Below are positions 12,345 through 49,007 of a DNA stretch of 64,000 nucleotides, in pieces; the stretch's first letter is position 1; every line of letters starts with the position of its first letter. The position numbers were made by a program, and so were the translations under genes. Source of the DNA: a virus (Duplodnaviria > Caudoviricetes); IMG/VR virus record IMGVR_UViG_2824317532_000002, positions 24,871 through 88,870 of that record; one strand, given 5' to 3'. The notes below the pieces were generated by a model. It saw only the letters and a list, made by a program, of their open reading frames with translations, ran no database searches and was not told the DNA's origin.

Positions 12345-12353
12345 GGTACCCTG

Positions 12354-12427
12354 AGCCGCCTGTCGGAATCGAACCGACGACCTACGCATTACGAGTGCGT
12401 CGCTCTAGCCGACTGAGCTAAGGCGGC
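12354..12427 (-). tRNA. tRNA-Thr(CGT); probable attachment site of prophage A
   Basis: Minus strand GCCGCCTTAGCTCAGTCGGCTAGAGCGACGCACTCGTAATGCGTAGGTCGTCGGTTCGATTCCGACAGGCGGCT; anticodon loop CT-CGT-AA. Confidence 0.95.
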
Positions 12428-18378: not shown

Positions 18379-18836
18379 TAGAAGGACTCCGGGTCGGTAT
18401 CGACGGTGTCGGGGGTCATCGGGACAGGCTCGGGTTGGTGCTTCTTCTTCACCCACGGAAGCCGGACGGCGGTGTAGCCGCGGGCGATGCTGGCGTTGCG
18501 GTAGCCGGACTCGATCACGCCGCAATCGGCCAGGGCATCGAGCAGCCGCTGATACTTCTCCCAGGTCATCGGCTTGTCGATGATTAGGTGGTTGTGCCCC
18601 TCGGTGCTGGAGGGGATTACCTGGACCGGCAGGTCGATGTCGAGCACGGGCTTGTGCAGTGGGCCGACAGCGGCCTCGACCGCCGGGTCGAGCGCCACCT
18701 TGGAGGTCATCACGTTGGCGTCATCGAGGGTGACGCCTTCGGTGGTGGGGCGGCTGTACTCCTCGCCGGTGTTGTGGTTGAAGTCGACGCGGCCATAGAG
18801 CTGACCGGCAAGCGGGGCCTGGAACGAGACGTTCAC
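18378..18836 (-). CDS. Conserved-looking actinophage hypothetical protein
   Basis: HKPVLDID...SSTEGHNHLIID...VRLPW. Confidence 0.65.
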   Translation of the reverse strand: MNVSFQAPLAGQLYGRVDFNHNTGEEYSRPTTEGVTLDDANVMTSKVALDPAVEAAVGPLHKPVLDIDLPVQVIPSSTEGHNHLIIDKPMTWEKYQRLLDALADCGVIESGYRNASIARGYTAVRLPWVKKKHQPEPVPMTPDTVDTDPESF

Positions 18837-19510
18837 GCGTACCGCCGGGGAGACAGGAGTTGCTCGCGCAGACGGCTAATGGCGGCGGCCGGGGTGATCC
18901 GGTCGATGCCGGAATCGATCGGGGCGAGCAGGTCGCGCAGGCCGCCGATGCCGGCCTCGTAGCGGTCGACGGCCTTCTTGTACTCGTTGCGCTGGTGCTT
19001 GGACTTCTCGACCGCGCTGAGGATGCCCTTGGCCTCGCCTGCGGTCATGGGCTGCTTCTCGTCAACCCGCTGGCCGAAGAGGCGGGCGATCTTGAGCAGG
19101 GCTTCGCGCTCGATGGGGGCCTTGGGCGGGACCGGCTGGTCCTCGATTTCGGCCAGCTCGGACTCCAGGTCGCGGACCTTGCGCTCCAGCTCGGCGATGC
19201 GGTTGCGCAGGGTAAGGCGTTCTGCGCGCTCGGCCGTATGCAGTGCGCTGATCGTGTCGCGGGACTTCTTTAGGGCGATCACGCCGTCGAGGGCGCGGCG
19301 CATGTTGCTCGGGGACCAGCGGTCGCCGCCGAGCGGGTTGGTGGACAGCTCGACGCCCAGCTCCCGCGCGACCGCGCCGACGATGACTCGGGCGGCGGCG
19401 CCGCGCTCGTTCTCCTGGTGGACGGCGTTCTCGGCCATGCCCTGGACTGCGCACAGGGCGGCCTTGGTGTTGTCGAGCTGCTTCATCAGCAGGTTCATCT
19501 CGGTAGTCAT
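18833..19510 (-). CDS. Coiled-coil hypothetical protein
   Basis: Heptad-rich LRNRIAELERKVRDLESEL; AGGAGG RBS. Confidence 0.6.
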   Translation of the reverse strand: MTTEMNLLMKQLDNTKAALCAVQGMAENAVHQENERGAAARVIVGAVARELGVELSTNPLGGDRWSPSNMRRALDGVIALKKSRDTISALHTAERAERLTLRNRIAELERKVRDLESELAEIEDQPVPPKAPIEREALLKIARLFGQRVDEKQPMTAGEAKGILSAVEKSKHQRNEYKKAVDRYEAGIGGLRDLLAPIDSGIDRITPAAAISRLREQLLSPRRYA

Positions 19511-19728
19511 GCGCGGACGTTCCTCCTGCTCATCCCGGTCAGGTGCCAGAGGCCGGCCGGGCATTCGTAGTGACGGTTCTCGACTCGCATTCCGCGGCGG
19601 GTGCCGGCCTTGTCGGCGGCGCGGCTACGGTGGGTCCGGGCCCTTCCGAGGGCCTTGCTGGCGTCGTGTTCGCAGGTGAACCCGCGCTTCTCGCACGTGT
19701 CGCACCAGGTGTGACTGACGGTCTTCAT
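19507..19728 (-). CDS. Small zinc-binding protein
   Basis: CDTCEKRGF...HYECPAGLWHLT. Confidence 0.65.
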   Translation of the reverse strand: MKTVSHTWCDTCEKRGFTCEHDASKALGRARTHRSRAADKAGTRRGMRVENRHYECPAGLWHLTGMSRRNVRA

Positions 19729-19744
19729 GGCTGCTGATCACTCG

Positions 19745-20176
19745 CTACTTTCGGAACTTGTCGCAGGGGCAGACTTCGAGCCCGCATCGGCCGCGGGCAG
19801 AACCGTCCATGAGGTGGGCCCATCCGGCATGTCCACAGTCGGGGTGCTGGCAGAAATCCTTGGCCCCCTTGCGGGAGCTGACGTTGCCGAGCAGGCGGCC
19901 GGTGCTGTTGAGGGTGACGACGGAGAACTCCCCGCCGAGCCCGCCGAGCTTCTCGCCCGTGCTGGTGGCGTCGATGACGCTGGCGAATGGGCCCCAGTTG
20001 AGGCCGAGCTGCCCCTTGCTGAATCGGTGAGAGAGGGCAACCCAGTCGCGCATGGCCATCAGGTCGGCCATGTCTTTGAGCAGGGCTTTCGCCATCTGCT
20101 CGGGGGTGTCGTAGTCGCCGGATTCGAGGATGCCGACTACGCGCTTGACCTCTTCGGCCCGGGGGGTGAATCGCAC
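19745..20176 (-). CDS. Hypothetical phage protein with C-terminal Cys/His cluster
   Basis: C-x3-DCGH...H...C...CPC; GGGAG RBS. Confidence 0.65.
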   Translation of the reverse strand: MRFTPRAEEVKRVVGILESGDYDTPEQMAKALLKDMADLMAMRDWVALSHRFSKGQLGLNWGPFASVIDATSTGEKLGGLGGEFSVVTLNSTGRLLGNVSSRKGAKDFCQHPDCGHAGWAHLMDGSARGRCGLEVCPCDKFRK

Positions 20177-22863: not shown

Positions 22864-24261
22864 CTAGGCGGGTTGAGCAACCGCCTCCCCCAGAGCCTCG
22901 GCGACGACCTTGAGCACTGGCTCCCACGAGTCGACGGCGTGCCCGGCCGCCAGGACTACGTTCACGGTTCGGCTCCTCGATGGCGTGGTCACTTGGAAGG
23001 CGGCCCCCAGCGACTGGCGGGCGGTATTCAAGGCCACGCGCACCTCCGTGCCGAGCGCCCGCGTGGGGCTACCGATCCGCAGGTCGAACGTGAAGCCGTC
23101 GACCTCGCCCCGACCGGCCACGCTCACCGTGTTCAGTCGCGCCACCGGCTCCGGGGTCGACGCCTTGCGCTGGTCCGGCACCGTCGACTTCTTCGGGCCG
23201 GGCATCGCAGGCTTCGGCGGGACGGTCATCTTCCCCGCCTTCGGCTTGGGGGCCGCCTTCGGTTTCGCGGCCGGCTTGGACCTGGTCGAGACTTCGGCCT
23301 TGGACGCCTCGGCCAGGTGGCGTGTTGCGAACCACGTCACCTGGCTCAGGATCTGACTTTCGGCCAGCTCGCGATCGAAGTCCTTGCAGGAGCACTTCCA
23401 GTGGTACAGCGGGACGTAGGTCAGGGCTCCGGCGTCGTCGTAGCCGGATACGGCCAGGCTCTGAGTCATGACCAGCTTGTGACCCGGGATCGGCTCGAAC
23501 TTCGGCAGAACCTCGCGGGCAGGCTTCGCGGGCGTCGGCTCGGTCCCGGCAGCCTGCTGCGTCTCCACGAGGTGGCCGTGGCTCATCAGGTGCCGGGCAG
23601 CCTGCCGGGCGGCCTGGCCTGCGTAGTACACGGTCTCGCGCTCCTGCGCCTTCGCGCCGCATTCGCACCGCCAGGTATGCCCGTCTGCCCAGTCGTTGAA
23701 CTGGATCCCGCCGAAGACTTCGACCCGGTGCCCCGGCTCAATACGGAGCTTCCAAATCCTGTTCTCGCCAGCGGGCAGACCGCAACTGGCGTCGTCTGCG
23801 ATTTCAGCGAAAGCCTCAGTCTCCGTGACATACACGGGCACGGGGTAGCACCCGGCGATCACCGCTTCGGGGTCGAGGTCATGGCGCAGCTTTGCCCACA
23901 CCTCAGTCACGACGGTGACCGGCTCGGGTTCCGACTCGGCCGACATGACCTCCAGACCGGGCAGGGCCTCCGGCTCGACCGGCTCGACCGGCTCGACCGG
24001 CGCGGCTGGCGCGGCTGGGGCCCGCTGGCCCATTTGCCGGATGTACCGCGCGGTGTCGAATTCGATTCCGATACCGGCCGCCCACGCTCCAGCCTCAGTG
24101 GTCACGTACTGGCCGGATTCTTCGGCCTCGATCCACTCGGCGACAATGCACGCCGCGATGGTGGAGTCGCGCGGTCGGGTCAGCTTGGCGCTCTCGTGTC
24201 CGGCGTACCGCAGGATCGCGTTTCGCTGCGCCGGGGTCGGCTTCCTGGCGATCGTTCCCAT
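22864..24261 (-). CDS. Large multidomain hypothetical protein with two WxCxC...RHL modules
   Basis: 465-aa ORF, AAGGGA RBS, PVE repeats, Lys/Pro linker. Confidence 0.65.
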   Translation of the reverse strand: MGTIARKPTPAQRNAILRYAGHESAKLTRPRDSTIAACIVAEWIEAEESGQYVTTEAGAWAAGIGIEFDTARYIRQMGQRAPAAPAAPVEPVEPVEPEALPGLEVMSAESEPEPVTVVTEVWAKLRHDLDPEAVIAGCYPVPVYVTETEAFAEIADDASCGLPAGENRIWKLRIEPGHRVEVFGGIQFNDWADGHTWRCECGAKAQERETVYYAGQAARQAARHLMSHGHLVETQQAAGTEPTPAKPAREVLPKFEPIPGHKLVMTQSLAVSGYDDAGALTYVPLYHWKCSCKDFDRELAESQILSQVTWFATRHLAEASKAEVSTRSKPAAKPKAAPKPKAGKMTVPPKPAMPGPKKSTVPDQRKASTPEPVARLNTVSVAGRGEVDGFTFDLRIGSPTRALGTEVRVALNTARQSLGAAFQVTTPSRSRTVNVVLAAGHAVDSWEPVLKVVAEALGEAVAQPA

Positions 24262-24289: not shown

Positions 24290-24613
24290 CTACTCCTTGC
24301 GAGTGCGCTCTTCCGCGCACACCTCGCGCCACTGCTCGATAACCTGGCCACGCAGGATCGTCAGGCCGGAAACCATGTCGTCGAGCGTGTCGATCAAGTG
24401 GCTCAGCGCGTCTGATCGGTTCTCCGGGTACTCGCCCGCCTCCCTGGCGCGCAGTGTCGCGTTCTCGCCAGGCTTGCGGTCCGGCGGCGACACGTACACC
24501 GTGCCCGACACATCCCAGATGCCCTGGAGCGTCGCCGCGCCAGCACGGACCGCGCGCAGGACTTTCAGGATGTGGCGACGACTCGCGGCACGCGGGCTAC
24601 CGGAACGGCTCAC
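24290..24613 (-). CDS. Hypothetical phage protein
   Basis: GTGA-coupled ORF. Confidence 0.55.
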   Translation of the reverse strand: MSRSGSPRAASRRHILKVLRAVRAGAATLQGIWDVSGTVYVSPPDRKPGENATLRAREAGEYPENRSDALSHLIDTLDDMVSGLTILRGQVIEQWREVCAEERTRKE

Positions 24614-24966
24614 CGGGTCACGCCCACGGCGTCAGCGATCACGAGCAGGTCATCGGCCGTACGGTGGTCGAGCCAGACGACGCTGTACGCCAAACCCAGG
24701 TCATGCGTGCAGTCACCGTCAAGGCGCGACGGACCGTAGACGGTACCCTCACGGTCGCGCTCCACCATGAGATCAATCTCCAGCGCGGCCGGAGCGCATG
24801 ACTGCGGACCTTCCGGGTCTTCCGGATTGTTCGGCATCCATGCCAGTTCGCCGCGCTCCAGCTCGGCACGCAAGTACTCCCACGCCTCACGGGCAGTGTC
24901 GAATACCGGCGGCTCGTCATCCATCGGCAGGTAGCCAGGGATGTTCACGTAGGCAGTAAATGACAT
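24610..24966 (-). CDS. Hypothetical acidic phage protein
   Basis: NIPGYLPMDDEPPVFDTAREAW; GAGAGGG RBS. Confidence 0.7.
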   Translation of the reverse strand: MSFTAYVNIPGYLPMDDEPPVFDTAREAWEYLRAELERGELAWMPNNPEDPEGPQSCAPAALEIDLMVERDREGTVYGPSRLDGDCTHDLGLAYSVVWLDHRTADDLLVIADAVGVTR

Positions 24967-24995
24967 TGCATTCCCTCTCTGCGGGCATTCTTACG

Positions 24996-25048
24996 TGCCC
25001 CGGGCAGGGATCGAACCTGCATTCGCACGCCTGTTGTGCGCCCGGGGC
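24996..25048 (-). ncRNA. D-armless tRNA-like minihelix
   Basis: GCCCCGG-G-CGCAC(AACAGGC)GTGCG-AAT-GCAGG(TTCGATC)CCTGC-CCGGGGC-A: 7-bp acceptor stem plus canonical T-arm. Confidence 0.7.
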
Positions 25049-25053
25049 CAACA

Positions 25054-25413
25054 TCAGTTGTCGAGCAGCAAATCGGTCATGTCATCGGGCTCCGGCAGGT
25101 AGTGCGCGCCAAGCGCATCGCGCGTGTCGGCACTAGACAGGCTCAGCGCGTCCGTAAGGATGGCCTTCCACCACTCATCCATCGGCGCTTCTTCCAGCCA
25201 TTCCGAGAGCAGGTTCGCGACCGCGATTCCAACCACGCGCACGCAGTCGGAATAGTCGGCACCGTGCGCATAGGCCGCCCGGTATGCATCCTGGCTCGGC
25301 GGGACTGATCCCATGTCGTTAACGATTGCCTCCTGCGCGGCTTCCGTGATCGCGTAGTAGCGCGCGAAGTCATTGTTGTCAGCGATAAGTGTCACGGCGT
25401 CAATGAGACTCAT
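25054..25413 (-). CDS. Hypothetical acidic phage protein
   Basis: GAGGA RBS; flanked by structured gaps. Confidence 0.65.
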   Translation of the reverse strand: MSLIDAVTLIADNNDFARYYAITEAAQEAIVNDMGSVPPSQDAYRAAYAHGADYSDCVRVVGIAVANLLSEWLEEAPMDEWWKAILTDALSLSSADTRDALGAHYLPEPDDMTDLLLDN

Positions 25414-25473
25414 TGGGGTTTCCTCTCAGCATTGCCCACGGAATGCAGGCAGGGGGGTGAAGGCGAATTCGGA

Positions 25474-25845
25474 TCAGTACTGCGGAAGGTCTTTCCAGCC
25501 GTCCACATCTTTGCCGCCGTCCGTGACGAAACGGTGTTCCAGGTAAGCGAGCATCGCCGTGCGAATCGCAAGGTCCGATTCGGTAGGGTCGCCATGCGGA
25601 GAATCCATCCACCAGCCAAAGAGGGATTCGTCCATGTAATCCACTGGCGTTGCGAATTGATCCTCAGCGTGGTTGAAGTCGTATGGGAAGGCAAAGTTTC
25701 CTGTGCTGTCAAACCAGCAGGAAGCCCAGTTCCACGTGTAGGCGTGCGCGAACTGGCGCGCGGCGCGATCGGAAATGATGGCGTCATTCGCGTTAGCCTC
25801 GCGAGCCTCAGCCAGCGACCAGCTACTCACGTGCGCATTTCCCAT
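25474..25845 (-). CDS. Hypothetical phage protein
   Basis: IISDRAARQFAHAY; aromatic/acidic. Confidence 0.65.
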   Translation of the reverse strand: MGNAHVSSWSLAEAREANANDAIISDRAARQFAHAYTWNWASCWFDSTGNFAFPYDFNHAEDQFATPVDYMDESLFGWWMDSPHGDPTESDLAIRTAMLAYLEHRFVTDGGKDVDGWKDLPQY

Positions 25846-25876
25846 TAGGCCGTTCCGTTCTCTCGGTATTGCGGAG

Positions 25877-25924
25877 TGCCGTACCGGGCCATGACACCCG
25901 TGCCCGCCTACGCGGGAGTACGGC
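25877..25924 (-). ncRNA. Second tRNA-like three-way junction
   Basis: GCCGTAC-T-CCCGC(GTAG)GCGGG-CA-CGGGT(GTCATG)GCCCG-GTACGGC-A. Confidence 0.5.
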
Positions 25925-25930
25925 CGTGAA

Positions 25931-26308
25931 TCATTCGCGCGACATCTGAGCGGAGTAGTTCAGGAACGTTTGGCCAGACATGCCCGTGCCGTACCGGCTG
26001 GCGCAGTTCGGGCAGAGGTAGTAGCCATCGGCCGGAACGCTGTCGATGAACACGCGCGCCGGAATGGTGCGGAACCGTGCCGTGTCCATGTGGCAAATGA
26101 GGCACAGCTCGCCGCGCTCACCGCTCTTCGCATAGAACGCCAGCGTTTCCACCAGGGTCCATGCCGCACGATGAGCCTCTTCGCAGGTCCACAGGTACGC
26201 GTTCCGGTCCTGGGGCAGGCCCGTCTCGTCGGCCTTCCGCGCAGCTCTACTGATCTTGAGATCCCAGAGGTCCCGTAGGTCAACAATCAAACGCAATTCA
26301 GGGGTCAT
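25931..26308 (-). CDS. Hypothetical zinc-binding phage protein
   Basis: CLICH...LCPNC; GGAG RBS. Confidence 0.6.
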   Translation of the reverse strand: MTPELRLIVDLRDLWDLKISRAARKADETGLPQDRNAYLWTCEEAHRAAWTLVETLAFYAKSGERGELCLICHMDTARFRTIPARVFIDSVPADGYYLCPNCASRYGTGMSGQTFLNYSAQMSRE

Positions 26309-26377
26309 GGTAAGACTCCATTTCGTGAGGGAGGAATTGCAGGGGGAAGTGCCTCGGATCTCAGTCCGTGAGTGGCA

Positions 26378-26447
26378 GGCCATCATCGGGCACGGAATGC
26401 CAATCCGCGCGACGGTATGACCCGTTTCCGGGTCCACCGTTTCGGCC
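26378..26447 (-). ncRNA. Type II hammerhead ribozyme, variant core CCGAUGA
   Basis: GGCC-GAAA-stem III (CGGTG/GACCCG GAAA CGGGTC/TACCG)-UC cleavage triplet GUC-stem I (GCGCGGA/TCCGTGC)-CCGATGA-T-GGCC. Confidence 0.75.
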
Positions 26448-26453
26448 GTGAAA

Positions 26454-27101
26454 TCAGACCAGCGCGGGTCGTCCGAGCGATTTCCGCTTGAGGTTGCGAA
26501 GCGAGATCAGTAGGAACTTCTCGGCCGAGTCACCCCAGATCACATCGTTACCGGAACACTCCGGGTAGAAGTCGTCCTCGCTCACCGCCTGCCAGAAACC
26601 CTGTTCGATTTCCTCGCGAGTGAATTCGTCCGCCACTTCCTGCCACCACTCCGGAAGGTCGGAGTACAGATCGGCGAACAGGTAGCCGCTGAATGACTCG
26701 TGAGCAGCCTCGTATTCAAGCTCACTCAAGTCGGACTCGTCGTAAACCGGGTACTGCTCTTTCAGGCCGATGACCGTGTTGATCAGGCGATCCGAAACCG
26801 AGTGCAGGAAGAACCCGAGTCCGTCGCACCCGGTGTATCCGACACGAAAGAACGCCATGCCGTAATCGCGCTCCAAGCTGCGGAAGTTGCTGATCTCCCA
26901 GAATGAGACCTGTCCCGCCCAATCCTCAGAGATCGCGCCGTCCACCTCGACAAACGGGCGCTCCGTCTCGTCGTAAGCGAACGGGTGAGCGTAAGCGGAG
27001 TGAATCCGGCCCTTCTCGTAAACGTCGGCCGGATCGGCGTAGCGCACGCTGAAACCAGCGCGCTTCAAATCGTCGATACGCTCTGCAAGCTTGACGTTCA
27101 T
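26454..27101 (-). CDS. Hypothetical acidic phage early protein (first gene of leftward operon)
   Basis: WEISNFRSL...LKEQYPVYDESDLSELE; directly downstream of the promoter. Confidence 0.7.
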   Translation of the reverse strand: MNVKLAERIDDLKRAGFSVRYADPADVYEKGRIHSAYAHPFAYDETERPFVEVDGAISEDWAGQVSFWEISNFRSLERDYGMAFFRVGYTGCDGLGFFLHSVSDRLINTVIGLKEQYPVYDESDLSELEYEAAHESFSGYLFADLYSDLPEWWQEVADEFTREEIEQGFWQAVSEDDFYPECSGNDVIWGDSAEKFLLISLRNLKRKSLGRPALV

Positions 27102-27172
27102 GCCCTGCCTTTCGGGTGCTGAGTAAACACTAGGCTCGCTCGGTTCGCTGCGCTGCCGAACCGATGGGAAGA

Positions 27173-27201
27173 ACGCTAGTCCAGGACAAGACTAAACACA
27201 A
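27173..27201 (-). promoter_or_regulatory. Main leftward early promoter TTGTGT-N17-TAGCGT with operator across -35/spacer
   Basis: Minus strand TTGTGTttagtcttgtcctggacTAGCGT; second operator at 27121-27130. Confidence 0.6.
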
Positions 27202-28120
27202 GTCCGGGGTGGAACTTTCTTGTTTTCCCTGCTCAGAACGCCTGTCAGGCGCTGGGACGCGAGGCCTGCGCGCCCATGGGCACGGCTACCAGGCAGAGGC
27301 GTTCGCCCCGCCCGTGAACGTCACGCTGCGGTCCGCTCGCGCCTCCGCACGTGTAGCCGTGACCCTCGCATGCGTGCGCGCGCCTGCGTGCCTCTCAGGT
27401 CCACGGGTGCCCATGCAGCGGCGAGGTGCCCTAGTCGCATGACACAGCCGGCATCTCACTGGCCTAGTCACTAGGACAGTAGTCATCTGACAGCTTGCCG
27501 TATCCCAGCGTGACTCACCCGTTACCGGGGGTATGACCCCCTGCGAGCTGGGACGCTCACCGGCCGTGGCTAGCACCTGAGATTCTGCCACGGTTCCAAA
27601 GTCGCCCAAGACGCGACGAAGCGCCGCCACCCGATGGGCAACGGCGCTGGTCAGACAGTGTTCCGGCGGCGAGCTAGTCCTCGTACATGGCTGCCCGGTT
27701 CGCCTCCTGAAATTCCTCCTGGCTGAGGTCGCCGGCAAGGTGCATGCCCAGGGTTGTGTAGGTGACGTGAGCGACTTCCAGGCGCTGCATCACCGATCAG
27801 CCCGTGATGGTCTCTCATGTTCTTACCTGGCTGCCCGACCTACGCGGCCACGGTACCAAGGCCGATCCGTCCTGTAAGTGAACGAGGCCAGGACGATTGC
27901 GGTGTATGGCCGGTTGGTCTCATCGAAGGAAGCGGCTCCCATAGGACATGACTATACACGACCGGGGCCTTCGGCCCCACGAGCGGGTTAGCCGGCTAGC
28001 AAGGGATTCCGCTGCCTTCTCTTCGCCGATGCATGGGGCCTCCGGCCCCTGTGGGTTTCCTTCGCCGCTGGGCGATCACATGGCTGGTTCTCTTGGAAGG
28101 GTTCAAGAGCATGGTTTGGG

Positions 28121-28325
28121 TGCACTCCACTGCACCCCGGTTACGAACTAGAGTTCACCCCGGTCAGGAACTACAGTGCACCCCGGTTGCCGGACCGGGG
28201 TGAATCCCACTGCACCCCTGTGGATAAACCGGGGTGAACTGCGCTGCACCCCGCCTGAGCTGCGAAAACAAGCCGGGGTGAACTGGAGTGCACCTCGGTC
28301 TGCCGCCGACGCAATCCCGGGGTCG
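28121..28325. repeat. Cluster of about 9 direct/inverted T(G/T)CACCCCGG repeats with a DnaA-box match
   Basis: Copies at 28131, 28154, 28177, 28195(rev), 28211, 28229(rev), 28245, 28273(rev), 28289; TGTGGATAA at 28219-28227. Confidence 0.75.
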
Positions 28326-28621
28326 TGACCTGAACCACAGCCAACCTCCGTTAGCCCGAGCTGAACCCGTACTACTAGTGAAGGGGTTAACCAGTAAGCC
28401 TGCTGACCAGCTAGCCAACTACCGAGCTAGCCCAGTAGAGAGCTAGGAAGTTAGAGAGCTTGGATCTGACGAGCCAACCCGCTGACCCGGTTGGAAGTTG
28501 GAGAGATGAAGAGCTTGGATCTAACCCGCTAGCCGGTTAACCCCAGCAGACCAGGTCTCGGGTCTACGCCTACGGGCAAACGTAGCCGAGACCTACAGCA
28601 AGACAGTACTGGTGGTGACTC

Positions 28622-28939
28622 GTGGGCAACGGCAGATGGCAAGGTAGTGATCGCCGGCAGCGACTCCCCCAGAACTGGCCATCCATTCAGCGACGCATTC
28701 TCAAGAACGCTGAATTCCGGTGCACCGTGAGAACCGAGGGGAAACGGTGCACCGAGCAGGCGACGGAAGTCGACCACATTCGTGCTGGTGACGATCATCG
28801 AGATTCCAACCTGAGAGCTATCTGCGGATGGCATCACCAGCAGAAATCATCCCGTGAAGGCGGGGAGGCGTACGCCGCGAACCGGCGACGCCAGGCCGCC
28901 AAGTTCAAGCGCACAGAGGCACACCCCGGCCTGCTGTAG
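28622..28939 (+). CDS. HNH endonuclease (packaging-associated)
   Basis: WQGSDRRQRLP..W...C...ATEVDHI..GDDH..SNL..ICGWHH..KSSREG. Confidence 0.9.
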   Translation: MGNGRWQGSDRRQRLPQNWPSIQRRILKNAEFRCTVRTEGKRCTEQATEVDHIRAGDDHRDSNLRAICGWHHQQKSSREGGEAYAANRRRQAAKFKRTEAHPGLL

Positions 28940-29031
28940 CGCTGCGGCGAGGGTCGAGGGCTCTCCCCTTGCTGCTTGTGCCCCAGCTCGCCCCTCTCCG
29001 AGCTGGGGCCTTCAACGTTTCCGGAGGTGCC

Positions 29032-38907: not shown

Positions 38908-41900
38908 ATGCCCAGCGGCGAACTGATTGGCCGCCTCAAGGTCAAGATCCTGCCCGATACCTCGGAGTTCAAGGCCAGGGCGCAACGCCAGCTCAACAAC
39001 ATCGAGGACGACCTCGATGACATGGAAGTCACGATCCATGCCCGTGTCGATGACGAAGGCGTGGAGAAGGACGCCGAGGCGGCGGAGCGCAAGGCCCAGA
39101 ACGCGGTCGACGGCATCACGATCAAGGTCGACCTCGACAGCGAAGACTCGATTCGTCAGGCCATGAAGCGCCTCGACAATGAGATGAAGAAGGTCACCGC
39201 GGACTTCGAGCTGCCGGTCACGCTCGACGAGCAGGGCATCAAGGACGCGCAGAAAGTCCTGCAAGAGAAGCTGCAGGTGCATATCGAGGCGGACAACGCC
39301 GAGTACGCGCAGCTCAAGGAGCGCATCCAGGACTACCTGTCGGGGATCAAGATCCGCCCGGACCTGGACGAGGGCGCCAAGGACCGGGCGTTTCGCGAGA
39401 TCGAAACGCTGATGCTGCGCGTCGACAAGATCCGCGCCACGATCACCCCGAGCGTGGACGACCGGGCGCGCGACCAGGCGGAGCGTGAGATCAAGGACCT
39501 TGAGGACAAGGTCAAGAAGATCAGGGCCACGATCGAGCCGGAACTGCAGGACAGCGCCCCGGCCATTGCCAGGCTCGCCGCTCTCACCCGGGACCGGTTC
39601 GTCAAGATCATCCCCGAGGTCAGTGAGGCCGCGGCCGCAAAGGTCAGCGCCACCCTGGCCGCACTGTCCGGGGCCCGCGCCGTGACCGACATGTTCAACG
39701 AGCTGTGGACCTCGATCAGCAACCTTGACAAGGCGGCCCCGAAGATCGCCGCCCTGTCGCTGGCCGTCGCTGGCCTGGGCGCTTCCGGCATCGCCTCGGT
39801 GTCGAACATGGCCGCCCTGGCGGCGAGCCTGGCGCAGATCGGTGCGGTCGCGCTGACACTGCCCGGCACGATCGGTGCGTTCGCGATCGGCCTCGGAACC
39901 ACGTACGCCGCGCTCAAGGACTTCAACAAGGTCGTCCCCGACGCGAAGGCCCACCTGTCCGAGCTGCAGGACGTGATCAGCGGCAATTTCTGGGAGAAGG
40001 CGAAGGCCCCCTTCCAGGAGCTGGTCGACGGCCTGCTTCCACAGTTCTCGGCCGGGGTCTCCGAGACGGCAACCGCCCTCGGCGGATTCTTCGGCAGCCT
40101 CGCGACCAGCCTGAACGGCACGTTCGACGGCGCTCTGACCGGCATGTTCACCGACTTGAACGAGTCGATTGCCACCGCGAGCACGTCGACTGACGCCATC
40201 GCCCAGACGATGCTGGTGCTCGGGGAGATCGGCGCGTCCTACCTGCCTCAGCTCGCCGGTTGGTTCGTCAACCTGGCCAACGCAGCCGCGGTCTGGCTGA
40301 CCGTCGCCCAGCAGGACGGCAGCCTCAAGGGCTGGGTCGACAACGGCATTCAGGCGCTCGCGGACCTTTGGTCGTCGCTGGTGTCGGTCGTGTCGATCCT
40401 CAACTCGATCGCCACGGCAGCGCAGAATGCCGGCGGCTCCGGTCTCTCCCAGCTCGCGGACGGGCTGTCCAGCATTGCCGATGCCGCGGCAAGCCCTGCA
40501 TTCCAGGGCGGCCTGACCGAGGTGTTCGCGTCGGCGCACCAGGCCATGGACCTGATTGCCACCCGCTCCGGGCCGGCGGTCAAGGGTCTGTTCGCCTCAC
40601 TCGGCGACACGGTCTCCACGGTCCTGCCGATCGTGGGCGCATCCATCGGCACCCTGCTCAACGGGTTGGCCAACGGCCTTTCCTCAGGTGCCGCGCAGAC
40701 CGGGACCGTTCAGTTCTTCAACGGCATCGCGAATGCGGTCACTGCCCTGGAGCCAGCCCTCACCCCGCTGGGCACGGCGTTCGGCATGCTGATGGGCACC
40801 CTCGGGACGTTCATCGGTGCGGTCGGCGACCCGCTGTCCATCCTGCTGGGCACGATGGCGTCGGCGTTCATGGCGCTGGCCCCGGCGATAAACCCGCTGA
40901 TCGCGGTTCTCGGCGCCGGGCTGAGCGCGGCCATGTCCGCGTTGGCGCCGGTCATCATGCAGGTCGTCACCGCGTTCAGCCAGATGGTCTCGGGTGGGCT
41001 GATCACCACCCTGCAGACGGTGTTCACGTCATTGACGCCCGTCATCGGCACTGTCGGGCAGGTGTTCGGCACCATCCTGGTAGCCGCGCTGCAGGCCATC
41101 GCCCCGCTACTGCCGATCATCGCCAACCTGTTCGCCACGATGGCACCGATCATCGCGAACCTGATGACCAGTCTCGCCCCGCTGGTGACGCAGATCCTGG
41201 CCGCCCTCGGCCCGGCGCTGGTGACCGTCATGACGGCGCTCACCCCCGTGGTGGCGCTGGTCTTGCAGATCGCCACCGCCGTTCTCGGGCCGATCCTGCA
41301 GGCTGTGGGTCAGGTCGCCGCCGAGGCACTGCCTCACCTGGCGTCCGCCCTTTCCGGACTGTTCGCCGCCATCCAGCCGGTCCTGCAGGCACTGCTTGTC
41401 GTGGTCGACGTGCTCATGGTGGTGCTCGCGCCCGCGATCGGCTTCGTCGCATCAGTGCTGATCAACTCCCTGATCGGCGCGATCAACGGCGTCAAGGACG
41501 TGTTCGAGGGCGCGGTCATGTTCCTGACCGGCATGTGGGACATGTTCGCCGGGTTCTTCACCGGCGACTGGGATCGCATGTGGTCCGGCATTAAGGCCCA
41601 ATTCGAGGGCATCTGGAACCTGATCGTCGGCGCGTTCGGGATCTTCATGAACATCGGAATCCTGGGCGTGGCCGGCAAGGTCCTCAACTCGATCAAGGCG
41701 GCCTTCAAGGTCGGCTTTGAGGCGGTCGAGGGTGCGGTCAAGGCGATCTTGAACTCGCTGCGCACCGGCTTCGACGACACCATGAACGGGTTGCTCAACG
41801 GCGGCAGGTCGCGGCTCACCTCGATCAGGACCGCATTCAGTGACGCCTGGACTGCGATCAAGACCGCCTGCACGGAGGCATTCGACAAGCTCAGGACCGC

Positions 41901-42438
41901 CTTCACCGAAGGGGTCGACAGCGCTCGTGACGAGGTCGGCAAGCTTCCGAACAAGATCACGTCGGCGCTGTCCGGACTCGCCACTCTGCTGGTCGGTGCA
42001 GGTCGTGACGTGATCTCCGGGTTCCTCCAGGGCTTGAAGGACACGTGGGGCAGCGTCGAGAGCTGGTTCGCCGCCAAGACCGCCCAGATCAAGGACCTCA
42101 AGGGCCCCGAGTCTGTCGACAAGGTGCTGCTCTACGACGCCGGCCAGCTCGTCATGGGCGGCTTCCTCAAGGGCCTGGAGTCCGGATACGACGACGTTCG
42201 CAAGAGCCTCAAGGGGTTCACCGCGGAGGTCGGCGGCACCCAGTTCCTGCCCCCCACGGTCGGCGACATGTCGGCCAGCTCCTCCATGGCGCTGATGCGG
42301 GCGGCCAGCGCATCGGGCGGCGATGCGTCCGTGGCGACCCAGCGGATTCTCAACTACTACGCAGCGCCCGGCAGCTCGATCTCCGCGGAGGACGACCTGT
42401 TCGCTGCGGCTAACCGAGCAAGGATGGCTAGCTGGTAA
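38908..42438 (+). CDS. Tape measure protein
   Basis: 1176 aa, Ala/Leu-rich helical repeats, after the chaperones. Confidence 0.93.
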   Translation: MPSGELIGRLKVKILPDTSEFKARAQRQLNNIEDDLDDMEVTIHARVDDEGVEKDAEAAERKAQNAVDGITIKVDLDSEDSIRQAMKRLDNEMKKVTADFELPVTLDEQGIKDAQKVLQEKLQVHIEADNAEYAQLKERIQDYLSGIKIRPDLDEGAKDRAFREIETLMLRVDKIRATITPSVDDRARDQAEREIKDLEDKVKKIRATIEPELQDSAPAIARLAALTRDRFVKIIPEVSEAAAAKVSATLAALSGARAVTDMFNELWTSISNLDKAAPKIAALSLAVAGLGASGIASVSNMAALAASLAQIGAVALTLPGTIGAFAIGLGTTYAALKDFNKVVPDAKAHLSELQDVISGNFWEKAKAPFQELVDGLLPQFSAGVSETATALGGFFGSLATSLNGTFDGALTGMFTDLNESIATASTSTDAIAQTMLVLGEIGASYLPQLAGWFVNLANAAAVWLTVAQQDGSLKGWVDNGIQALADLWSSLVSVVSILNSIATAAQNAGGSGLSQLADGLSSIADAAASPAFQGGLTEVFASAHQAMDLIATRSGPAVKGLFASLGDTVSTVLPIVGASIGTLLNGLANGLSSGAAQTGTVQFFNGIANAVTALEPALTPLGTAFGMLMGTLGTFIGAVGDPLSILLGTMASAFMALAPAINPLIAVLGAGLSAAMSALAPVIMQVVTAFSQMVSGGLITTLQTVFTSLTPVIGTVGQVFGTILVAALQAIAPLLPIIANLFATMAPIIANLMTSLAPLVTQILAALGPALVTVMTALTPVVALVLQIATAVLGPILQAVGQVAAEALPHLASALSGLFAAIQPVLQALLVVVDVLMVVLAPAIGFVASVLINSLIGAINGVKDVFEGAVMFLTGMWDMFAGFFTGDWDRMWSGIKAQFEGIWNLIVGAFGIFMNIGILGVAGKVLNSIKAAFKVGFEAVEGAVKAILNSLRTGFDDTMNGLLNGGRSRLTSIRTAFSDAWTAIKTACTEAFDKLRTAFTEGVDSARDEVGKLPNKITSALSGLATLLVGAGRDVISGFLQGLKDTWGSVESWFAAKTAQIKDLKGPESVDKVLLYDAGQLVMGGFLKGLESGYDDVRKSLKGFTAEVGGTQFLPPTVGDMSASSSMALMRAASASGGDASVATQRILNYYAAPGSSISAEDDLFAAANRARMASW

Positions 42439-43292
42439 TGCGACTGCAGTTGGTGTCTTCCAACGACATCATCTGGCTCGACGAGGTCAGTCGCTTCGGT
42501 GTTGGCGTAGAAGCCACTGTCGGAGTGACTGGCCTCGGTATGCCAGAGGTGTCTCTCAACTGGGTCGAGTCGGCGGGCGACGGTGCCGTTTTCCGTAACG
42601 AGCGCAAGCGCCCGCGTGACATCGACATCCCTCTACACATCGTCGGTTCGAGCCGCAACGACCTCAAATGGTGGATGGATCGGCTCGCCCTGATGGTGTC
42701 CGGACCGTTCGCACTGCAGTGGGTCGAGGACAACGGCACGTACTGGACTCTCAACGCGTACCGCACGGGCGGCATGGGCTACACCTATGGCGTCGACACC
42801 CGGGGCAGCCGTGACCTGAACACCGTGCTCACGGTGCGGGCCGGCGACCCGTACTGGACCTATTCGCAGTCGTCGCGCGAGGTAGTGACGGCCGCGACGC
42901 CGCGCGGCAACTTCGTCACCAAGTTCCACAAAATCCGCGTCGCCTCGTCGCAGGCGATGGGTGGGATGATCCTACGCAACCCGGGCACCGCGAAGGCGTA
43001 CCCGCAGTGGGATGTCACCGGCCCCGCACAGAACATCCGCCTGATCTCCAGCACGGGCGAGCGCCTGCAGTGGACCGGGTCGCTGACCGCCGGGCAGACC
43101 CTGCGTATCAACACGCAGACCGGCGCGGTGACCGACCATACCGGCGCCAACCGTTACGCCGATCTCGCAAGCGCTCCCCGCATGTGGACCATCCCGCCCG
43201 GCGTCATCACGGCGGTCGCAGCCATGGACGGCGCGGCGTCGACCAGTTCGATCGCCTGCACCTGGCGTCCCCGATCCCTCCTGGTGGTGTGA
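42438..43292 (+). CDS. Distal tail protein
   Basis: GLGMPEV...RDIDIPLHI...AGDPYW...NPGTAKAYPQW. Confidence 0.85.
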   Translation: MRLQLVSSNDIIWLDEVSRFGVGVEATVGVTGLGMPEVSLNWVESAGDGAVFRNERKRPRDIDIPLHIVGSSRNDLKWWMDRLALMVSGPFALQWVEDNGTYWTLNAYRTGGMGYTYGVDTRGSRDLNTVLTVRAGDPYWTYSQSSREVVTAATPRGNFVTKFHKIRVASSQAMGGMILRNPGTAKAYPQWDVTGPAQNIRLISSTGERLQWTGSLTAGQTLRINTQTGAVTDHTGANRYADLASAPRMWTIPPGVITAVAAMDGAASTSSIACTWRPRSLLVV

Positions 43293-45539
43293 ATGCGACT
43301 CGAAGACATCACCGTCGAGGTGAGGGACAAGACCCTGGCACGGGTCGGCCTGATCCGGCCCGAGGATCTACAGCTCGAACTGACCGACCTGCACAACGGG
43401 GTCGGTAGCTGGACACTTCGCCTGCCGGCCGGGCACCGCCTCGTCTCCGCGTTGCGCGCACCGGGATCCGGCATCATCGTCACCGGCCCGGACGGGCAGA
43501 CCTTGCTGTCCGGGCCGATGGTGTCGCCCATGTCGTCGGCCACCGCAGACGACCCCCGCGGCACGATGACGTTCGAGGGCGTCGACGACACAGTTCTACT
43601 GGTCGACGCCCTCGCCTACCCGGATCCGACCGGAGGGCCGCTCTCCAAGGAGGCCGCGTACGACACGCGAACCGGTGTAGCCGAAACCCTGATGCACGGC
43701 TTCGTCCGCGACAACATCGGACCCGGCGCACTGGCCGGCCGACGCGTCGGCCTCAACGCCTACGTCACCATGGGCGCGAATCTCAGTCGCGGGCCGACGA
43801 TCACCAAGAGCGCACGGTTCACGTCCCTCGCGACGGTCCTGTCCGAGATCGCGGGCCCCGCGCGACTCGGGTTCCGAATCGTGCAGCGCGGGTCGAGCCT
43901 GGTGTTCGAGACCTACCAGATCACCGACCGCACATCGACGATCCGCCTCGACATCCTCAACAACACGCTGTCCGGGCACAAGGTGGCCGTCGCCGCCCCG
44001 GGCGTCACTCGCGTGCTCGTTGGCGGCCAGGACGAAGGCGTCTACCGCAAGTTCGTGTACGAGACGAACACCGACGCAACCACCGCCGAGTCGATGTGGG
44101 GCCGGCAGATCCAGCAGTTCATCAGCCAGAACACCGGCGACACCAGCGAACTCAGCGACGCCGCGGAAGAGGCGCTGGCTGAGGACGGCTTCACCGGCGT
44201 CGCGGTTCAGGCGGTGCCGATGGAGGACTCCCTGATGAGGTTTGGCAAGGAGTTCAACCTTGGCGATGCGGTGTCGGTGGTGGTCGACGACCAGGAGCTG
44301 ATCAGTACCGTCACCGGCTACGTGGTCAAGGCCGACCAGGACGGCTTCCGCCTAGGCATGATGCTCGGCGACACCACCGGCTTCGATGTCGCCGCCGCGT
44401 ACGGCAAGGCGATCGGATCGCAGGCTGCCCGCATCGCCAAGCTGGAAACCACCGCAGAGGCAACCACGTCCGGCACCCGGGCGTTGGCCGCGTCGGCGGT
44501 TTCGCTCGCCGTGACACGCGACGCGTTCCCCAGCGGGGACTCCGAGGTCTACCTGACACCCGCAGCGGTCACCGCCGGAAGCTGGCCATGGACCGGCCAG
44601 TGGGGGAGCCTGCATACCTACCGCCACGGTAGCGGCTCCGAAGTCTGGCAGACGTATCGACGGATCGCCGACAACTGGACCGAACCGCAACAGTGGATCC
44701 GCCACGCGAACAGCGCCGGCTACTCCCGATGGCGGCAGCTCGGCCTGGACCTGCACGCCTCGATCGGCGGGCACTCCGCGGCGGGCCTGCAGAGCGGCGG
44801 CACCCGAACCGCAACCATCGTCGGCGCCGCAGTCAGCATCGCCTGGTCAGACCGGTTCGTGATGACCGGCCTCGGCCAGGGCGCGGACACGTTCACGGCC
44901 GGCTACTTCAACATTGCGATGCCCGTCAACGGTGCAGTGATCAAGAGCGTCACCACGGGCGTTGCTGACGTGACGGTTTCCAGCGGCGCAATCCCGCTGC
45001 CCGCATGGGCGACACTCTGGTACATCCCTCCGGTCGGGGCTGCGGAGACCTCGCTCGATGCCAACTTCCGGATCTCCGTGCACGGTGGCGCGACGGAGGC
45101 GATCCCTTCCCACTGGGTGTTGGTCGCCGCATGCCGCGGTGAACCGACCACCGGATCCGCGGTGCGCTGGGGCGACGGGCAGACCACCGACGCGTGGCGC
45201 GCGTTCACGTTCGAGAGTGGCTGGAAGGCGTTCGGGGACACGAGCCCTGTGGCGTGGACCGTACGCAACGGCGTGCTGTATTGCCGTGGCCTGATCGGGC
45301 GCACCCTGAGCGACCTGTCTGCGGCGGCGGGGACCGGCTACCCGCTGACGGCGGCCCTGCCTACCTGGGCCCGACCTGCACAGTTCGCCGGCAACTGGGC
45401 CGTCCCATGCAACAACCAGTTCGGCGAGATCTACATCGGCTCGGACGCCAAGCTTTACCTGCGGCTCAAGGCTGCCGCCACATTGACATCCAACACCTGG
45501 TGGGCATCGCTGTCCAACGTCACCTGGCCTCTCGGCTGA
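43293..45539 (+). CDS. Baseplate hub/minor tail protein (Gp37-like) with long C-terminal extension
   Basis: HNGVGSWTLRLP...FGKEFNLGDAVSV; about 360 extra aa, Trp/Gly-rich. Confidence 0.8.
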   Translation: MRLEDITVEVRDKTLARVGLIRPEDLQLELTDLHNGVGSWTLRLPAGHRLVSALRAPGSGIIVTGPDGQTLLSGPMVSPMSSATADDPRGTMTFEGVDDTVLLVDALAYPDPTGGPLSKEAAYDTRTGVAETLMHGFVRDNIGPGALAGRRVGLNAYVTMGANLSRGPTITKSARFTSLATVLSEIAGPARLGFRIVQRGSSLVFETYQITDRTSTIRLDILNNTLSGHKVAVAAPGVTRVLVGGQDEGVYRKFVYETNTDATTAESMWGRQIQQFISQNTGDTSELSDAAEEALAEDGFTGVAVQAVPMEDSLMRFGKEFNLGDAVSVVVDDQELISTVTGYVVKADQDGFRLGMMLGDTTGFDVAAAYGKAIGSQAARIAKLETTAEATTSGTRALAASAVSLAVTRDAFPSGDSEVYLTPAAVTAGSWPWTGQWGSLHTYRHGSGSEVWQTYRRIADNWTEPQQWIRHANSAGYSRWRQLGLDLHASIGGHSAAGLQSGGTRTATIVGAAVSIAWSDRFVMTGLGQGADTFTAGYFNIAMPVNGAVIKSVTTGVADVTVSSGAIPLPAWATLWYIPPVGAAETSLDANFRISVHGGATEAIPSHWVLVAACRGEPTTGSAVRWGDGQTTDAWRAFTFESGWKAFGDTSPVAWTVRNGVLYCRGLIGRTLSDLSAAAGTGYPLTAALPTWARPAQFAGNWAVPCNNQFGEIYIGSDAKLYLRLKAAATLTSNTWWASLSNVTWPLG

Positions 45540-45607
45540 CCCTTCAACGTCAACCCCTCGCGCTGGTCGCGGGGGGTTTTCTCATGCCCCAAGGAGGCGG
45601 CCCTCTC

Positions 45608-46609
45608 GTGGCAATCACCTACTTCCCGTTCGATGACGTCGACACCAACGAAGACCAGTACTCCCAGCTCTTCCGCGAACTGCAGGACTCGGGTGTCGCC
45701 GCGTCGCACGGCTCGAACTCCTTCCAGGTCGGCGCGAACGCTTCCGGCATGACGGTCACCGTCCAGGCCGGCTTCGCGATCCTGCGTGGCCACGCCATCC
45801 TCTCCACGGCGGTCGAGTCGCTCACCGTCGCCGCCGCGAGCACGTCGGCCCGCATCGACCGGATCGTCCTGCGCCTGGATCCTGGTGCCAACAAGATCAG
45901 CCTGGCGATCCTGCAGGGCACCGCCGGTTCAGGCGTGGCGCCCACGCTGACCCAGACCGACACCGGCCTTTTCGAGATCTCGCTGGCGACCGTGACGGTC
46001 GGCGCTTCGGTCGGCTCGATCGCCGCGTCGGCGGTCACCGACACTCGCCAGTTCGTCGGTTCCCGTGTCGGCACGTGGACTTCGTCGACCCGGCCGGCCG
46101 GCCCCCGCAAGGGCAAGCTCGGCTTCAACGATGAGACCGGTCTGTGGGAGTTTTTCAACGGAACCACGTGGGCGAACCTGACCACGTCCTGGTCCTCGAT
46201 CACCGGAGCCCCGGCCACCTTCACACCCACAGCGCACACGCACGCCTGGACGGACCTGTCCGGCGTTGCGCCGGCCGCGAAGTTGCCGGTCGGCACCGCC
46301 TCGGGCACGGTCGCGGCTGGCGACCACCACCACGACCAACTCACCCGCCTACCGAACCGGGTCAAGTTCGGCCGAACGCTGATCACCCCGACCGCTGCGA
46401 ACGTCACCACCTCCGAGATGGTCACCTGGAGCAACAGCCCGCCGGTCATCACGGAGGCTCCGGTCGTCCTCCTCACCGCGGACTCGTCTGCCCCTAGCGT
46501 GATCACCGGCCTCACGGTCAGCGGCCCGAGCACCACCGGCTTCCAGATCAACCTGATCCGCACCAACACCGTCGCCACCTATGTCAACTGGGTGGCGGTG
46601 TGGCCGTGA
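45608..46609 (+). CDS. Minor tail protein
   Basis: ITYFPFD, RIDRIVLRLD, HTHAWTDL fibre motif; AAGGAGG RBS. Confidence 0.8.
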   Translation: MAITYFPFDDVDTNEDQYSQLFRELQDSGVAASHGSNSFQVGANASGMTVTVQAGFAILRGHAILSTAVESLTVAAASTSARIDRIVLRLDPGANKISLAILQGTAGSGVAPTLTQTDTGLFEISLATVTVGASVGSIAASAVTDTRQFVGSRVGTWTSSTRPAGPRKGKLGFNDETGLWEFFNGTTWANLTTSWSSITGAPATFTPTAHTHAWTDLSGVAPAAKLPVGTASGTVAAGDHHHDQLTRLPNRVKFGRTLITPTAANVTTSEMVTWSNSPPVITEAPVVLLTADSSAPSVITGLTVSGPSTTGFQINLIRTNTVATYVNWVAVWP

Positions 46610-46884
46610 TCGCCGCCCTGGAAGCGCCTGTTCAGGCGGCCATCGTCACTGCGGCCGGCACCGTCATCGTCGCCCTGCTCGGCCTCGGCCTGGAGTTCAT
46701 GCGTCGCAGCCACAAGCGGATCGGCGAGGTCCGGGAGCAGGTCGCCAACTCGCACAAGACCAACCTGCGCGACGACATCGACCGCGTCCTCGACGGCATT
46801 GACGGGCTCCGCCAGGAGATCCGCCACGAGCGGGCCGAGCGGCTGGCGCTGGAGAACCGCGTCGACCGGCTGGCCGAGAAGTGA
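46600..46884 (+). CDS. Small membrane protein (DUF2746-like, lysis-associated)
   Basis: One TM segment plus EQVANSHKTNLRDDID coiled coil. Confidence 0.7.
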   Translation: MAVIAALEAPVQAAIVTAAGTVIVALLGLGLEFMRRSHKRIGEVREQVANSHKTNLRDDIDRVLDGIDGLRQEIRHERAERLALENRVDRLAEK

Positions 46885-47279: not shown

Positions 47280-47282
47280 CCC

Positions 47283-48938: not shown

Positions 48939-49007
48939 TCCTCACCAAACGAGCCCCGCCTGCGATGCGCAGGCGGGGCTTTCTGCATGCCCAAGGAGGC
49001 ATCCCCC

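Follow-up and report, generated by a model that had tools for sequence, protein, structure and literature searches.

Two kinds of candidate RNA-cleavage signal at the start of the early leftward operon of an Actinoplanes prophage

Transfer RNAs (tRNAs) in mitochondria, and tRNA-like structures such as the t-elements of plant mitochondria, lie between genes and set the sites of RNase P and RNase Z cleavage, and the same two enzymes release mascRNA, a small tRNA look-alike, from a longer transcript. RNase P also cuts phage and operon transcripts at tRNA-like folds, as in the C4 RNA of P1/P7, the M3 RNA of phi80 and operon mRNAs (PMC11143913). Hammerhead ribozymes flank single genes in prophages, where they have been proposed to cut long transcripts into gene-length mRNAs (PMC3088659); because this is in print, hammerhead punctuation of prophage operons is not new. 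A 2019 review describes the processing of polycistronic transcripts as a suggested, undefined role of bacterial and phage hammerheads (PMC6765202). Here we describe the window, a 64,000-nucleotide (nt) stretch of Actinoplanes DNA that carries a prophage (positions 24,871 to 88,870 of IMG/VR record IMGVR_UViG_2824317532_000002), in which the first five genes of the early leftward operon, gpA to gpE, are separated by gaps of 145, 85, 60 and 87 nt (gaps 1–4). Gap 1 carries a hammerhead, and gaps 2 and 4 carry compact tRNA-like junctions, TLS2 and TLS4, that resemble a family of mini-tRNAs found in other phages. With little better than even confidence, we propose from these sequences that two kinds of RNA-cleavage signal punctuate the start of the operon and would yield single-gene mRNAs.

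The locus resembles each of these systems in part. Like the clustered type II hammerheads of prophages (PMC3088659; RF02276), gap 1 has the topology, GAAA, GUC and pseudoknot of the type and lies on the sense strand between small genes, but its core reads CCGAUGA (U4C), an extra U follows the core and its score is below the Rfam gathering score; furthermore, the window operon has one hammerhead only, with tRNA-like junctions in later gaps. The mini-tRNA family shares with mascRNA (MEN-beta, RF01684) the form of a small tRNA look-alike within a longer transcript, with an acceptor stem, a T arm and reduced other arms. It differs in that the phage elements are 45–52 nt long with a single side hairpin, are placed between protein-coding genes and occur several per operon, and the likeness is an analogy, not membership. 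Mitochondrial punctuation relies mostly on functional organellar tRNAs, whereas the phage elements are non-decoding miniatures mixed with self-cleaving ribozymes. The C4, M3 and operon mRNA substrates of RNase P are single cases with no conserved motif in common, and none is described as alternating with hammerheads in PMC11143913. Finally, TLS4 has the 7-base-pair (bp) acceptor stem, the discriminator A and the T arm with a G53–C61-type closing pair of tRNA (RF00005), but a single hairpin replaces the anticodon and D arms, and there is neither a U8 nor a U33-type loop.

The three elements and their parts are listed below; R1 and R3 are covariance models of hammerheads and of the mini-tRNA family, respectively.

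26370–26448, minus strand: type II hammerhead variant in gap 1 (R1 39.1 bits, E 2e-7; Rfam Hammerhead_II 15.9 bits)
26447–26444 with 26381–26378, minus strand: hammerhead stem II
26443–26440, minus strand: hammerhead GAAA
26439–26413, minus strand: hammerhead stem III hairpin
26412 and 26411, minus strand: hammerhead U16.1 and C17, the GUC triplet ending at 26411
26410–26390, minus strand: hammerhead stem I, with loop UUGGCAU
26389–26383, minus strand: hammerhead core CCGAUGA in place of CUGANGA, with U4C at 26388
26382, minus strand: extra U between the core box and stem II
26402–26398 with 26377–26373, minus strand: 5-bp hammerhead pseudoknot between UGGCA of loop I and UGCCA of the tail
25876–25924, minus strand: TLS2 in gap 2, which passes the family descriptor (R3 12.9 bits; no Rfam match)
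24995–25048, minus strand: TLS4 in gap 4, which passes the family and strict T-loop descriptors (R3 20.9 bits; Rfam tRNA 18.5 bits)

A hammerhead and two tRNA-like junctions had been described in these gaps in the initial annotation, and all three structures are where it had placed them, on the minus strand, which is the sense strand. The hammerhead and TLS2 each start 6 nt past the TGA of the preceding gene, gpA and gpB respectively, and TLS4 starts 5 nt past that of gpD; TLS2 ends 30 nt before the gpC start and TLS4 28 nt before the gpE start. The shared word that it had noticed after the first two stop codons is likewise real: TTCACGGCCG stands directly 3′ of the gpA and gpB stops and occurs exactly three times in the window. 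The third common feature that it reported, GGCAC, is present in all three gaps, and in gaps 2 and 4 it is the GGC-plus-AC end of the mini-tRNA family; in gap 1 it is probably a chance 5-mer.

The minimum free energy fold of gap 1 (26372–26453) is a three-way junction in which stems I and III are capped and stem II is open (z −2.94; one of 200 shuffled sequences was as good). The topology, G12, A13 and A14, the A15.1–U16.1 pair, the H17 triplet and the pseudoknot between loop I and the 3′ tail are those of a type II hammerhead; the core box C3 U4 G5 A6 N7 G8 A9 directly before stem II is not present in that form. The loop I/tail pseudoknot occurs in most type II hammerheads and is required for fast cleavage (PMC3088659). 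When RF02276 was placed on a 92-nt stretch of gap 1 it aligned from end to end, with the pseudoknot letters UGG and GCCA on the consensus. R1, built from seven hammerheads of Streptomyces phage VieEnRose alone and run over the whole window with filters off, gave gap 1 as its top match, the next match reaching 13.3 bits. In IMG/VR, a pattern for hammerheads of this type matched at least 120 stretches, and R1 recognized at least 165 hammerheads in at least 82 sources, with the gap 1 score within their range. In an alignment of 150 hammerheads, 149 of them from outside the window, an extra nucleotide, mostly U, lies between A9 and stem II in 17 of the 149, and one of the 149 carries U4C (L079, 3910–3972, in a locus full of hammerheads). 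On these counts the extra U falls within normal variation, and U4C, though rare, does recur. A BLAST search of the phage collection with the gap 1 hammerhead gave chance-level matches only. We conclude from the alignments that gap 1 is a hammerhead by descent, which may still cut. A partial hammerhead look-alike that contains CUGAUGAGCCA occurs within the gpG coding region (23572–23651, minus strand; R1 12.7 bits, E 0.6) and is probably due to chance, since it is translated as codons.

To judge from its homologs, the window operon belongs to a hammerhead-punctuated lineage. In the GenBank phage collection, only VieEnRose resembles this region at the DNA level. The gpE protein is 45% identical to VieEnRose gp71 over 97 amino acids (aa; E 1e-22; tblastn E 6e-14), and a hammerhead lies in the gap upstream of gp71 (3807–3869 of L015, 50.9 bits; L015 is the reverse complement of 41339–49436 of ON526983.1). 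The leftward block of small genes in VieEnRose has ten gaps of more than 40 nt; nine contain a canonical type II hammerhead by eye, and the sole gap without one holds plain hairpins (z −2.85). At the Rfam gathering score, hammerheads are found in seven gaps over 8 kb of this block, and R1 matches ten. None of the VieEnRose hammerheads is annotated in the GenBank record, and the R1 match at 3254–3321 of L015 starts at an annotated coding sequence (CDS) start. Two further window genes, at 19745–20176 and 18833–19564, have homologs of 31–50% identity in many hammerhead-bearing viral loci.

A scan of hammerhead loci for the junction design of TLS2 and TLS4 gave look-alikes in L076, L118 and L131, with compensatory changes between orthologous gaps. 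An exact pattern derived from these look-alikes matched 32 IMG/VR contigs, comprising 31 mini elements and one real tRNA. R3 was built from 23 of these sequences, none of them from the window; it is dominated by one subtype, and its E-values are roughly calibrated. It recognized 59 elements of about 45–52 nt in 34 loci, of which 43 are distinct. In the R3 alignment 90.1% of cells are paired, both sides change in 11 of the 15 pairs, and covariation is 0.332, as compared with 0.098 for shuffled alignments (0 of 500 reaching 0.332) and at most 0.065 with slid partners; the alignment was fitted to the model, which favours pairing, while the first pattern fixed part of the sequence, which limits variation. 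Almost every element (58 of 59) lies within 80 nt after the end of an open reading frame (ORF) on the same strand, with a mode of 7 nt, and a ribosome-binding site and start codon follow within 160 nt in 53 of 59. Outside the two junction pairs, G.U outnumbers A.C by 17 to 3, an excess that fits an RNA made from the sense strand. These comparisons show that a covarying mini tRNA-like family exists in phages. Covariation and positional conservation, which the initial annotation had named as the check to be made in related actinophages, were both found, in uncultured phages rather than in close actinophage relatives of the prophage.

The closing stem of the family is 7–8 bp long; its pairs 1–4 (GCCC/GGGC) are invariant except for one G.U at pair 1, and AC follows. 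As we read the sequences, this stem and hairpin 2 form a stack of 12 layers, as do the acceptor stem and T arm of tRNA, and the linkers of the junction vary in length and sequence. Three subtypes are distinguished by the loop of hairpin 2: UUCAAGA; AGCGAGA; and UUCAUGA, UUCACGA, UUCGCGA and others. ARAGORN called none of the 59 elements a tRNA, and no Rfam family reached threshold on them, the nearest being mascRNA-menRNA on a member in L144 (19.1 bits, against 42.5).

In most mini elements of the sample inspected (for example L144, 1273–1310, and L118) a second conserved hairpin stands after AC, followed by a common UUAAGACAGGAGAAA stretch with a ribosome-binding site; UUAAGACA words often precede the element too. 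On the minus strand of L148 there are four mini-tRNA matches in 2.3 kb (473–2765) and no hammerhead match. These elements, at 77–82% G+C, are the closest to the window elements in base composition, and L148 has no gene in common with the window. More widely, none of 13 proteins from the leftward operon of the window had a homolog in loci L136–L164 by tblastn.

TLS2 and TLS4 are built to a common design: a 7-bp stem that starts with GCC, a 1-nt linker, a 5-bp hairpin, a 2–3-nt linker, a stacked 5-bp hairpin, GGC and then AC. In TLS2 the closing stem (25924–25918/25884–25878) encloses a 5-bp hairpin with a tetraloop and a 5-bp hairpin with a 6-nt loop. In TLS4 the stem (25048–25042/25003–24997) encloses a 5-bp hairpin with a 7-nt loop and a canonical T arm with the loop UUCGAUC, after which come A and C. 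TLS4 combines an acceptor stem with a stacked T arm whose loop fits UUCRANN; TLS2 has the stack and not the loop. The anticodon and D arms are missing from TLS4, and CCA is not encoded. Against RF00005 it scored 18.5 bits (gathering score 29; E 0.053 in a search of 72 nt), with acceptor stem, T arm and discriminator A aligned perfectly and one arm deleted. ARAGORN did not call TLS4, and neither TLS4 nor TLS2 forms a cloverleaf. No Rfam family matched TLS2, and mascRNA-menRNA was not among the matches of either junction with E-values of 10 or less. The strict T-loop minihelix descriptor, applied to about 1.23 Mb, matched TLS4 without mismatch and one other site, in an A+T-rich stretch of L077; it found no further mini element there. 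In BLAST searches of the phage collection TLS2 had no match, and the matches of TLS4 were T arms of real phage tRNAs. The prophage adjoins a tRNA-Thr (12353–12427), the sole ARAGORN call in the window, whose sequence is unrelated to TLS4. The 12-nt 3′ end of TLS2, CCGGTACGGCAC (25876–25887, minus strand), is repeated exactly in the gpB coding region at 25986–25997, 110 nt upstream, which may be chance or a trace of the origin of TLS2.

In a search of the window with R3, filters off, TLS4 was the top match (20.9 bits, E 0.049, borderline under a rough calibration), while TLS2 came seventh (12.9 bits, E 2.0) and was aligned from end to end. Three-way junctions as such are common in this G+C-rich DNA: a loose junction descriptor matched the window 11 times, as compared with 4–11 times in ten shuffled versions, and the shared design alone therefore proves little. 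The family descriptor is narrower, consisting of a GCC start, a 7-bp stem, two hairpins and GGC plus AC, and it passes 31 of the 43 distinct family members. It matched the window exactly twice, at 25878–25924 (TLS2) and 24997–25048 (TLS4); other viral DNA with hammerheads (1.045 Mb) gave no match, and 40 shuffled windows gave seven. Because its frame came from TLS2 and TLS4, this test is partly post hoc, and is supportive but not independent. Taken together, the matches make it probable that TLS4 belongs to the mini-tRNA family. For TLS2, where architecture is the only ground, we lean towards membership with less assurance. A plain hairpin at 28978–29009 (minus strand), in an ORF-poor stretch between divergent operons, carries the outer letters of the family (GCCCCAGC ... 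GCUGGGGC, then AC) and is the third-best R3 match and the fourth-best match in the window of R2, a model made from TLS4 only. The matches of R2 in L064 were rejected as real tRNAs rather than mini elements.

The two kinds of element are coupled in other phages. With R1 matches at E up to 0.01 counted as hammerheads, 18 of the 34 family loci have a hammerhead upstream of the mini-tRNAs on their strand; of the 28 loci retrieved solely by the mini-tRNA pattern, 12 do. All 18 show one order, with the hammerhead or hammerheads first and the mini-tRNA or mini-tRNAs after, as in the window. When the proteins encoded downstream of the elements were clustered, seven of the 31 clusters with at least two members mixed genes preceded by a hammerhead with genes preceded by a mini-tRNA; one of the seven (L157) is to be set aside, as it depends on a regular-expression hammerhead in the same gap. 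The mini-tRNA-preceded gpE and the hammerhead-preceded gp71 of VieEnRose form one mixed cluster. Both kinds of element therefore occupy the same slot in different phages. If hammerheads and mini-tRNAs are indeed exchanged before homologous genes, the function that they share is most simply the cut. The homologous slots and the mixture of elements suggest that these phages have two interchangeable means of dividing long messages into pieces of one gene each.

In the mechanism that we propose, the type II hammerhead of gap 1 would self-cleave between 26411 and 26410, and the junctions would be cut by host RNase P on the 5′ side of G1, at 25924 in TLS2 and 25048 in TLS4. RNase Z may cut the mini-tRNA after the A. 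The polycistronic early transcript would in this way be converted into single-gene mRNAs with structured, protected ends: each cut would leave a structured 5′ end on the downstream mRNA, and the hammerhead cut would also leave a 3′ hairpin on the upstream mRNA. What points to these candidate enzymes is the stack of 12 layers, together with the canonical T arm in TLS4 and a conserved A-C tail that matches part of the RCCA end paired by bacterial RNase P RNA. We infer that RNase P and RNase Z would act here, that the hammerhead would cleave in spite of U4C and that expression of the operon would be affected. Of the initial proposal that self-cleavage and host tRNA-processing enzymes together cut this mRNA, the outline fits the hammerhead-filled gaps of VieEnRose, the covarying post-stop family and the exchange of elements; the assignment to RNase P and RNase Z is a deduction from structure.

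A number of observations weigh against punctuation by these two signals. With regard to gap 1, RF02276 gives 15.9 bits against a gathering score of 37, and the element was not among the matches in a 1.8-kb search. It carries U4C, a substitution that considerably lowers activity in vitro, although a viroid variant with U4C and much lower in vitro activity is infectious; and some candidates with more than one deviation in the core are inactive (PMC3088659). With regard to the junctions, the E-value of 0.049 for TLS4 comes from a roughly calibrated model, that of 2.0 for TLS2 is not significant, and R2 does not retrieve TLS2. No convincing relative of TLS4 with a UUCG loop was seen among at least 122 matches to that pattern, of which 73 were full-length tRNA-like, 41 lacked a closing stem and 8 were short, read as internal parts of tRNAs. 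In the family at large, position 58 of the ‘T loop’ is often not A and the loop can be read instead as 5 nt closed by a U-A pair, U54 being able to pair with the final base of the loop, so that the mimicry of tRNA is imperfect; the AGCGAGA loop of one subtype is not T-loop-like. The coupling is also partial: in 16 of the 34 family loci the retrieved DNA contains no hammerhead, a mini-tRNA is among the matches listed for only 6 of the 120 loci that the hammerhead scan gave, and in 15 multi-hammerhead loci Rfam found 55 hammerheads and neither tRNA nor any other family. Entire gaps fold no better than shuffled sequences (z about −1). Finally, no close relative of the prophage was found, and the window elements are without orthologs on which they might be tested.

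Four other explanations were weighed. The mini-tRNA junctions might be some other cis-acting RNA, either a new class of small self-cleaving ribozyme or the binding site of a phage nuclease or antiterminator. It is in keeping with this that they sit in hammerhead slots and swap with hammerheads before homologous genes, that the loop of hairpin 2 is not a strict T loop, and that other ribozyme classes came to light because they are associated with hammerhead and twister genes. Since no family of ribozymes in Rfam matches, a ribozyme would have to be of a new class. We nevertheless find this unlikely: the invariant letters (GCCC/GGGC plus AC) are at the outer end of the closing stem and not at the junction, where ribozyme cores lie; the junction linkers are variable; and the 12-layer stack is that of a tRNA acceptor stem and T arm, the T arm of TLS4 being a textbook example.

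Equally unlikely, in our judgement, is that the elements exist chiefly for what is released, with mini-tRNAs of 45–52 nt acting in trans, an alternative that the initial annotation had raised in the form of decoys. They might serve as decoys or sponges that occupy defence nucleases directed at tRNA or toxins that modify it, or might capture the CCA-adding enzyme or a synthetase. The conserved GCC...GGC, the A that resembles A73 and the C are reminiscent of acceptor-stem identity elements, and several copies per operon would give a high dose early in infection. The mini-tRNAs have no anticodon arm, however, so that anticodon nucleases could not be decoyed, and the neighbouring genes showed no link to defence or toxins. 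Hammerheads release no tRNA-like RNA, and their interchange with the mini-tRNAs speaks for the cut as the function that both have in common.

That the three elements are relics of a hammerhead-punctuated ancestor, namely one decaying ribozyme with U4C and two G+C-rich junctions that are leftovers or chance, seems to us quite improbable. Two core deviations and a sub-threshold Rfam score would be expected of such a ribozyme, and there is one hammerhead here as compared with up to ten in relatives, with gap 3 empty; the gaps as a whole are no stabler than shuffled sequences, TLS2 is not significant by R3, and the tRNA arrays of actinophages can contain tRNA relics, Gordonia phage Keelan being an example. 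On the other hand, no helix is broken in any of the three elements, and the 5-bp pseudoknot is complete as well. The extra U is an ordinary variant, U4C is seen again in a locus rich in hammerheads, and both junctions keep every hallmark of the family together with its position after a stop codon; nothing else in the window matches the descriptor. In Keelan itself (L013, MN586014.1), a hypothetical CDS between tRNA-Thr and tRNA-Leu (250–430) overlaps two T-arm/acceptor fragments that resemble decayed tRNA genes and that ARAGORN does not call.

Ordinary intercistronic hairpins that protect the upstream mRNA from 3′ exonucleases or pause transcription, without cleavage, are a very unlikely account, even though distant gpA homologs (L002, L005) and the one hammerhead-free gap of VieEnRose have stable hairpins, because they leave the hammerhead core, the canonical T arm, GCC/GGC plus AC and the exchange with ribozymes unexplained, and no U tract follows any of the structures in gaps 1, 2 and 4.

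Punctuation of the operon start by a hammerhead and tRNA-like cleavage signals is thus the reading that we prefer, and if it is correct these elements represent a compact, portable RNA-processing module that depends on host enzymes and is missed by current tRNA finders and by Rfam. The suggestion that this is an undescribed system applies to one half of it: hammerhead punctuation has been published (PMC3088659), whereas a phage mini-tRNA family that alternates with hammerheads was found neither in Rfam 15 nor in the full-text literature searched, which excludes subscription journals and supplements. The family may sit unnamed among the 8,495 candidate RNAs reported from IMG/VR intergenic regions (Fremin et al., 2023, PMC10690425). 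A broader and more tentative proposal, doubtful as it stands, is that a widespread group of tailed phages punctuates its early operons with the two tools as interchangeable modules directly behind stop codons, and that the mini-tRNAs recruit host RNase P and RNase Z and, once released, become CCA-tailed and act in trans on host enzymes or defence toxins directed at the acceptor end. Were it true, this would be the first counterpart in bacterial viruses of mitochondrial tRNA punctuation and of mascRNA, and would tie bacterial hammerhead biology to plain mRNA processing.

The genes of the operon start, and the remaining gap, are as follows.

26454–27101, minus strand: gpA, 215 aa, first gene of the leftward operon, without a Pfam family, with a weak match to phrog_3906
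25931–26308, minus strand: gpB, 125 aa, without a known family
25474–25845, minus strand: gpC, 123 aa, without a known family
25414–25473, minus strand: gap 3, a weak hairpin only (z −0.15), with no R1 or R3 match on this strand
25054–25413, minus strand: gpD, 119 aa, without a known family
24610–24966, minus strand: gpE, 118 aa, the homolog of VieEnRose gp71

From gpE onwards the genes of the operon touch or overlap one another. Seven proteins were tested, none of which belongs to a Pfam family, and in PHROG gpA alone has a match, which is weak and to a family of unknown function. Nine homologs of gpA were found, with identities of 38–100%. A pattern search for gpA returned only its own record among genome contigs and none among viral contigs; an alignment-based scan led to distant loci, in which the gaps 3′ of the gpA homologs hold hairpins of other shapes (L002, L005). 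Gap 3 has no ribozyme-like or tRNA-like element, and its fold is not significant. The idea that it holds a hammerhead relic, which came from a 20-nt similarity to the hammerhead (16 of 20) and the 10-mer GCATTCCGTG, was dropped because many repeats within coding regions are of the same quality. On the other side of gpA, the approximately 1.7 kb at its 5′ end (27102–28850) contains no open frame that is as G+C-rich at third codon positions as the other genes are.

Hammerheads are also found next to genuine tRNAs. In L064, a viral contig with an array of ten tRNAs, type II hammerheads at 3692–3759 and 4587–4654 (minus strand) start 2–3 nt 3′ of tRNA-Asn, a position from which the ribozyme could generate the 3′ trailer end of the tRNA.

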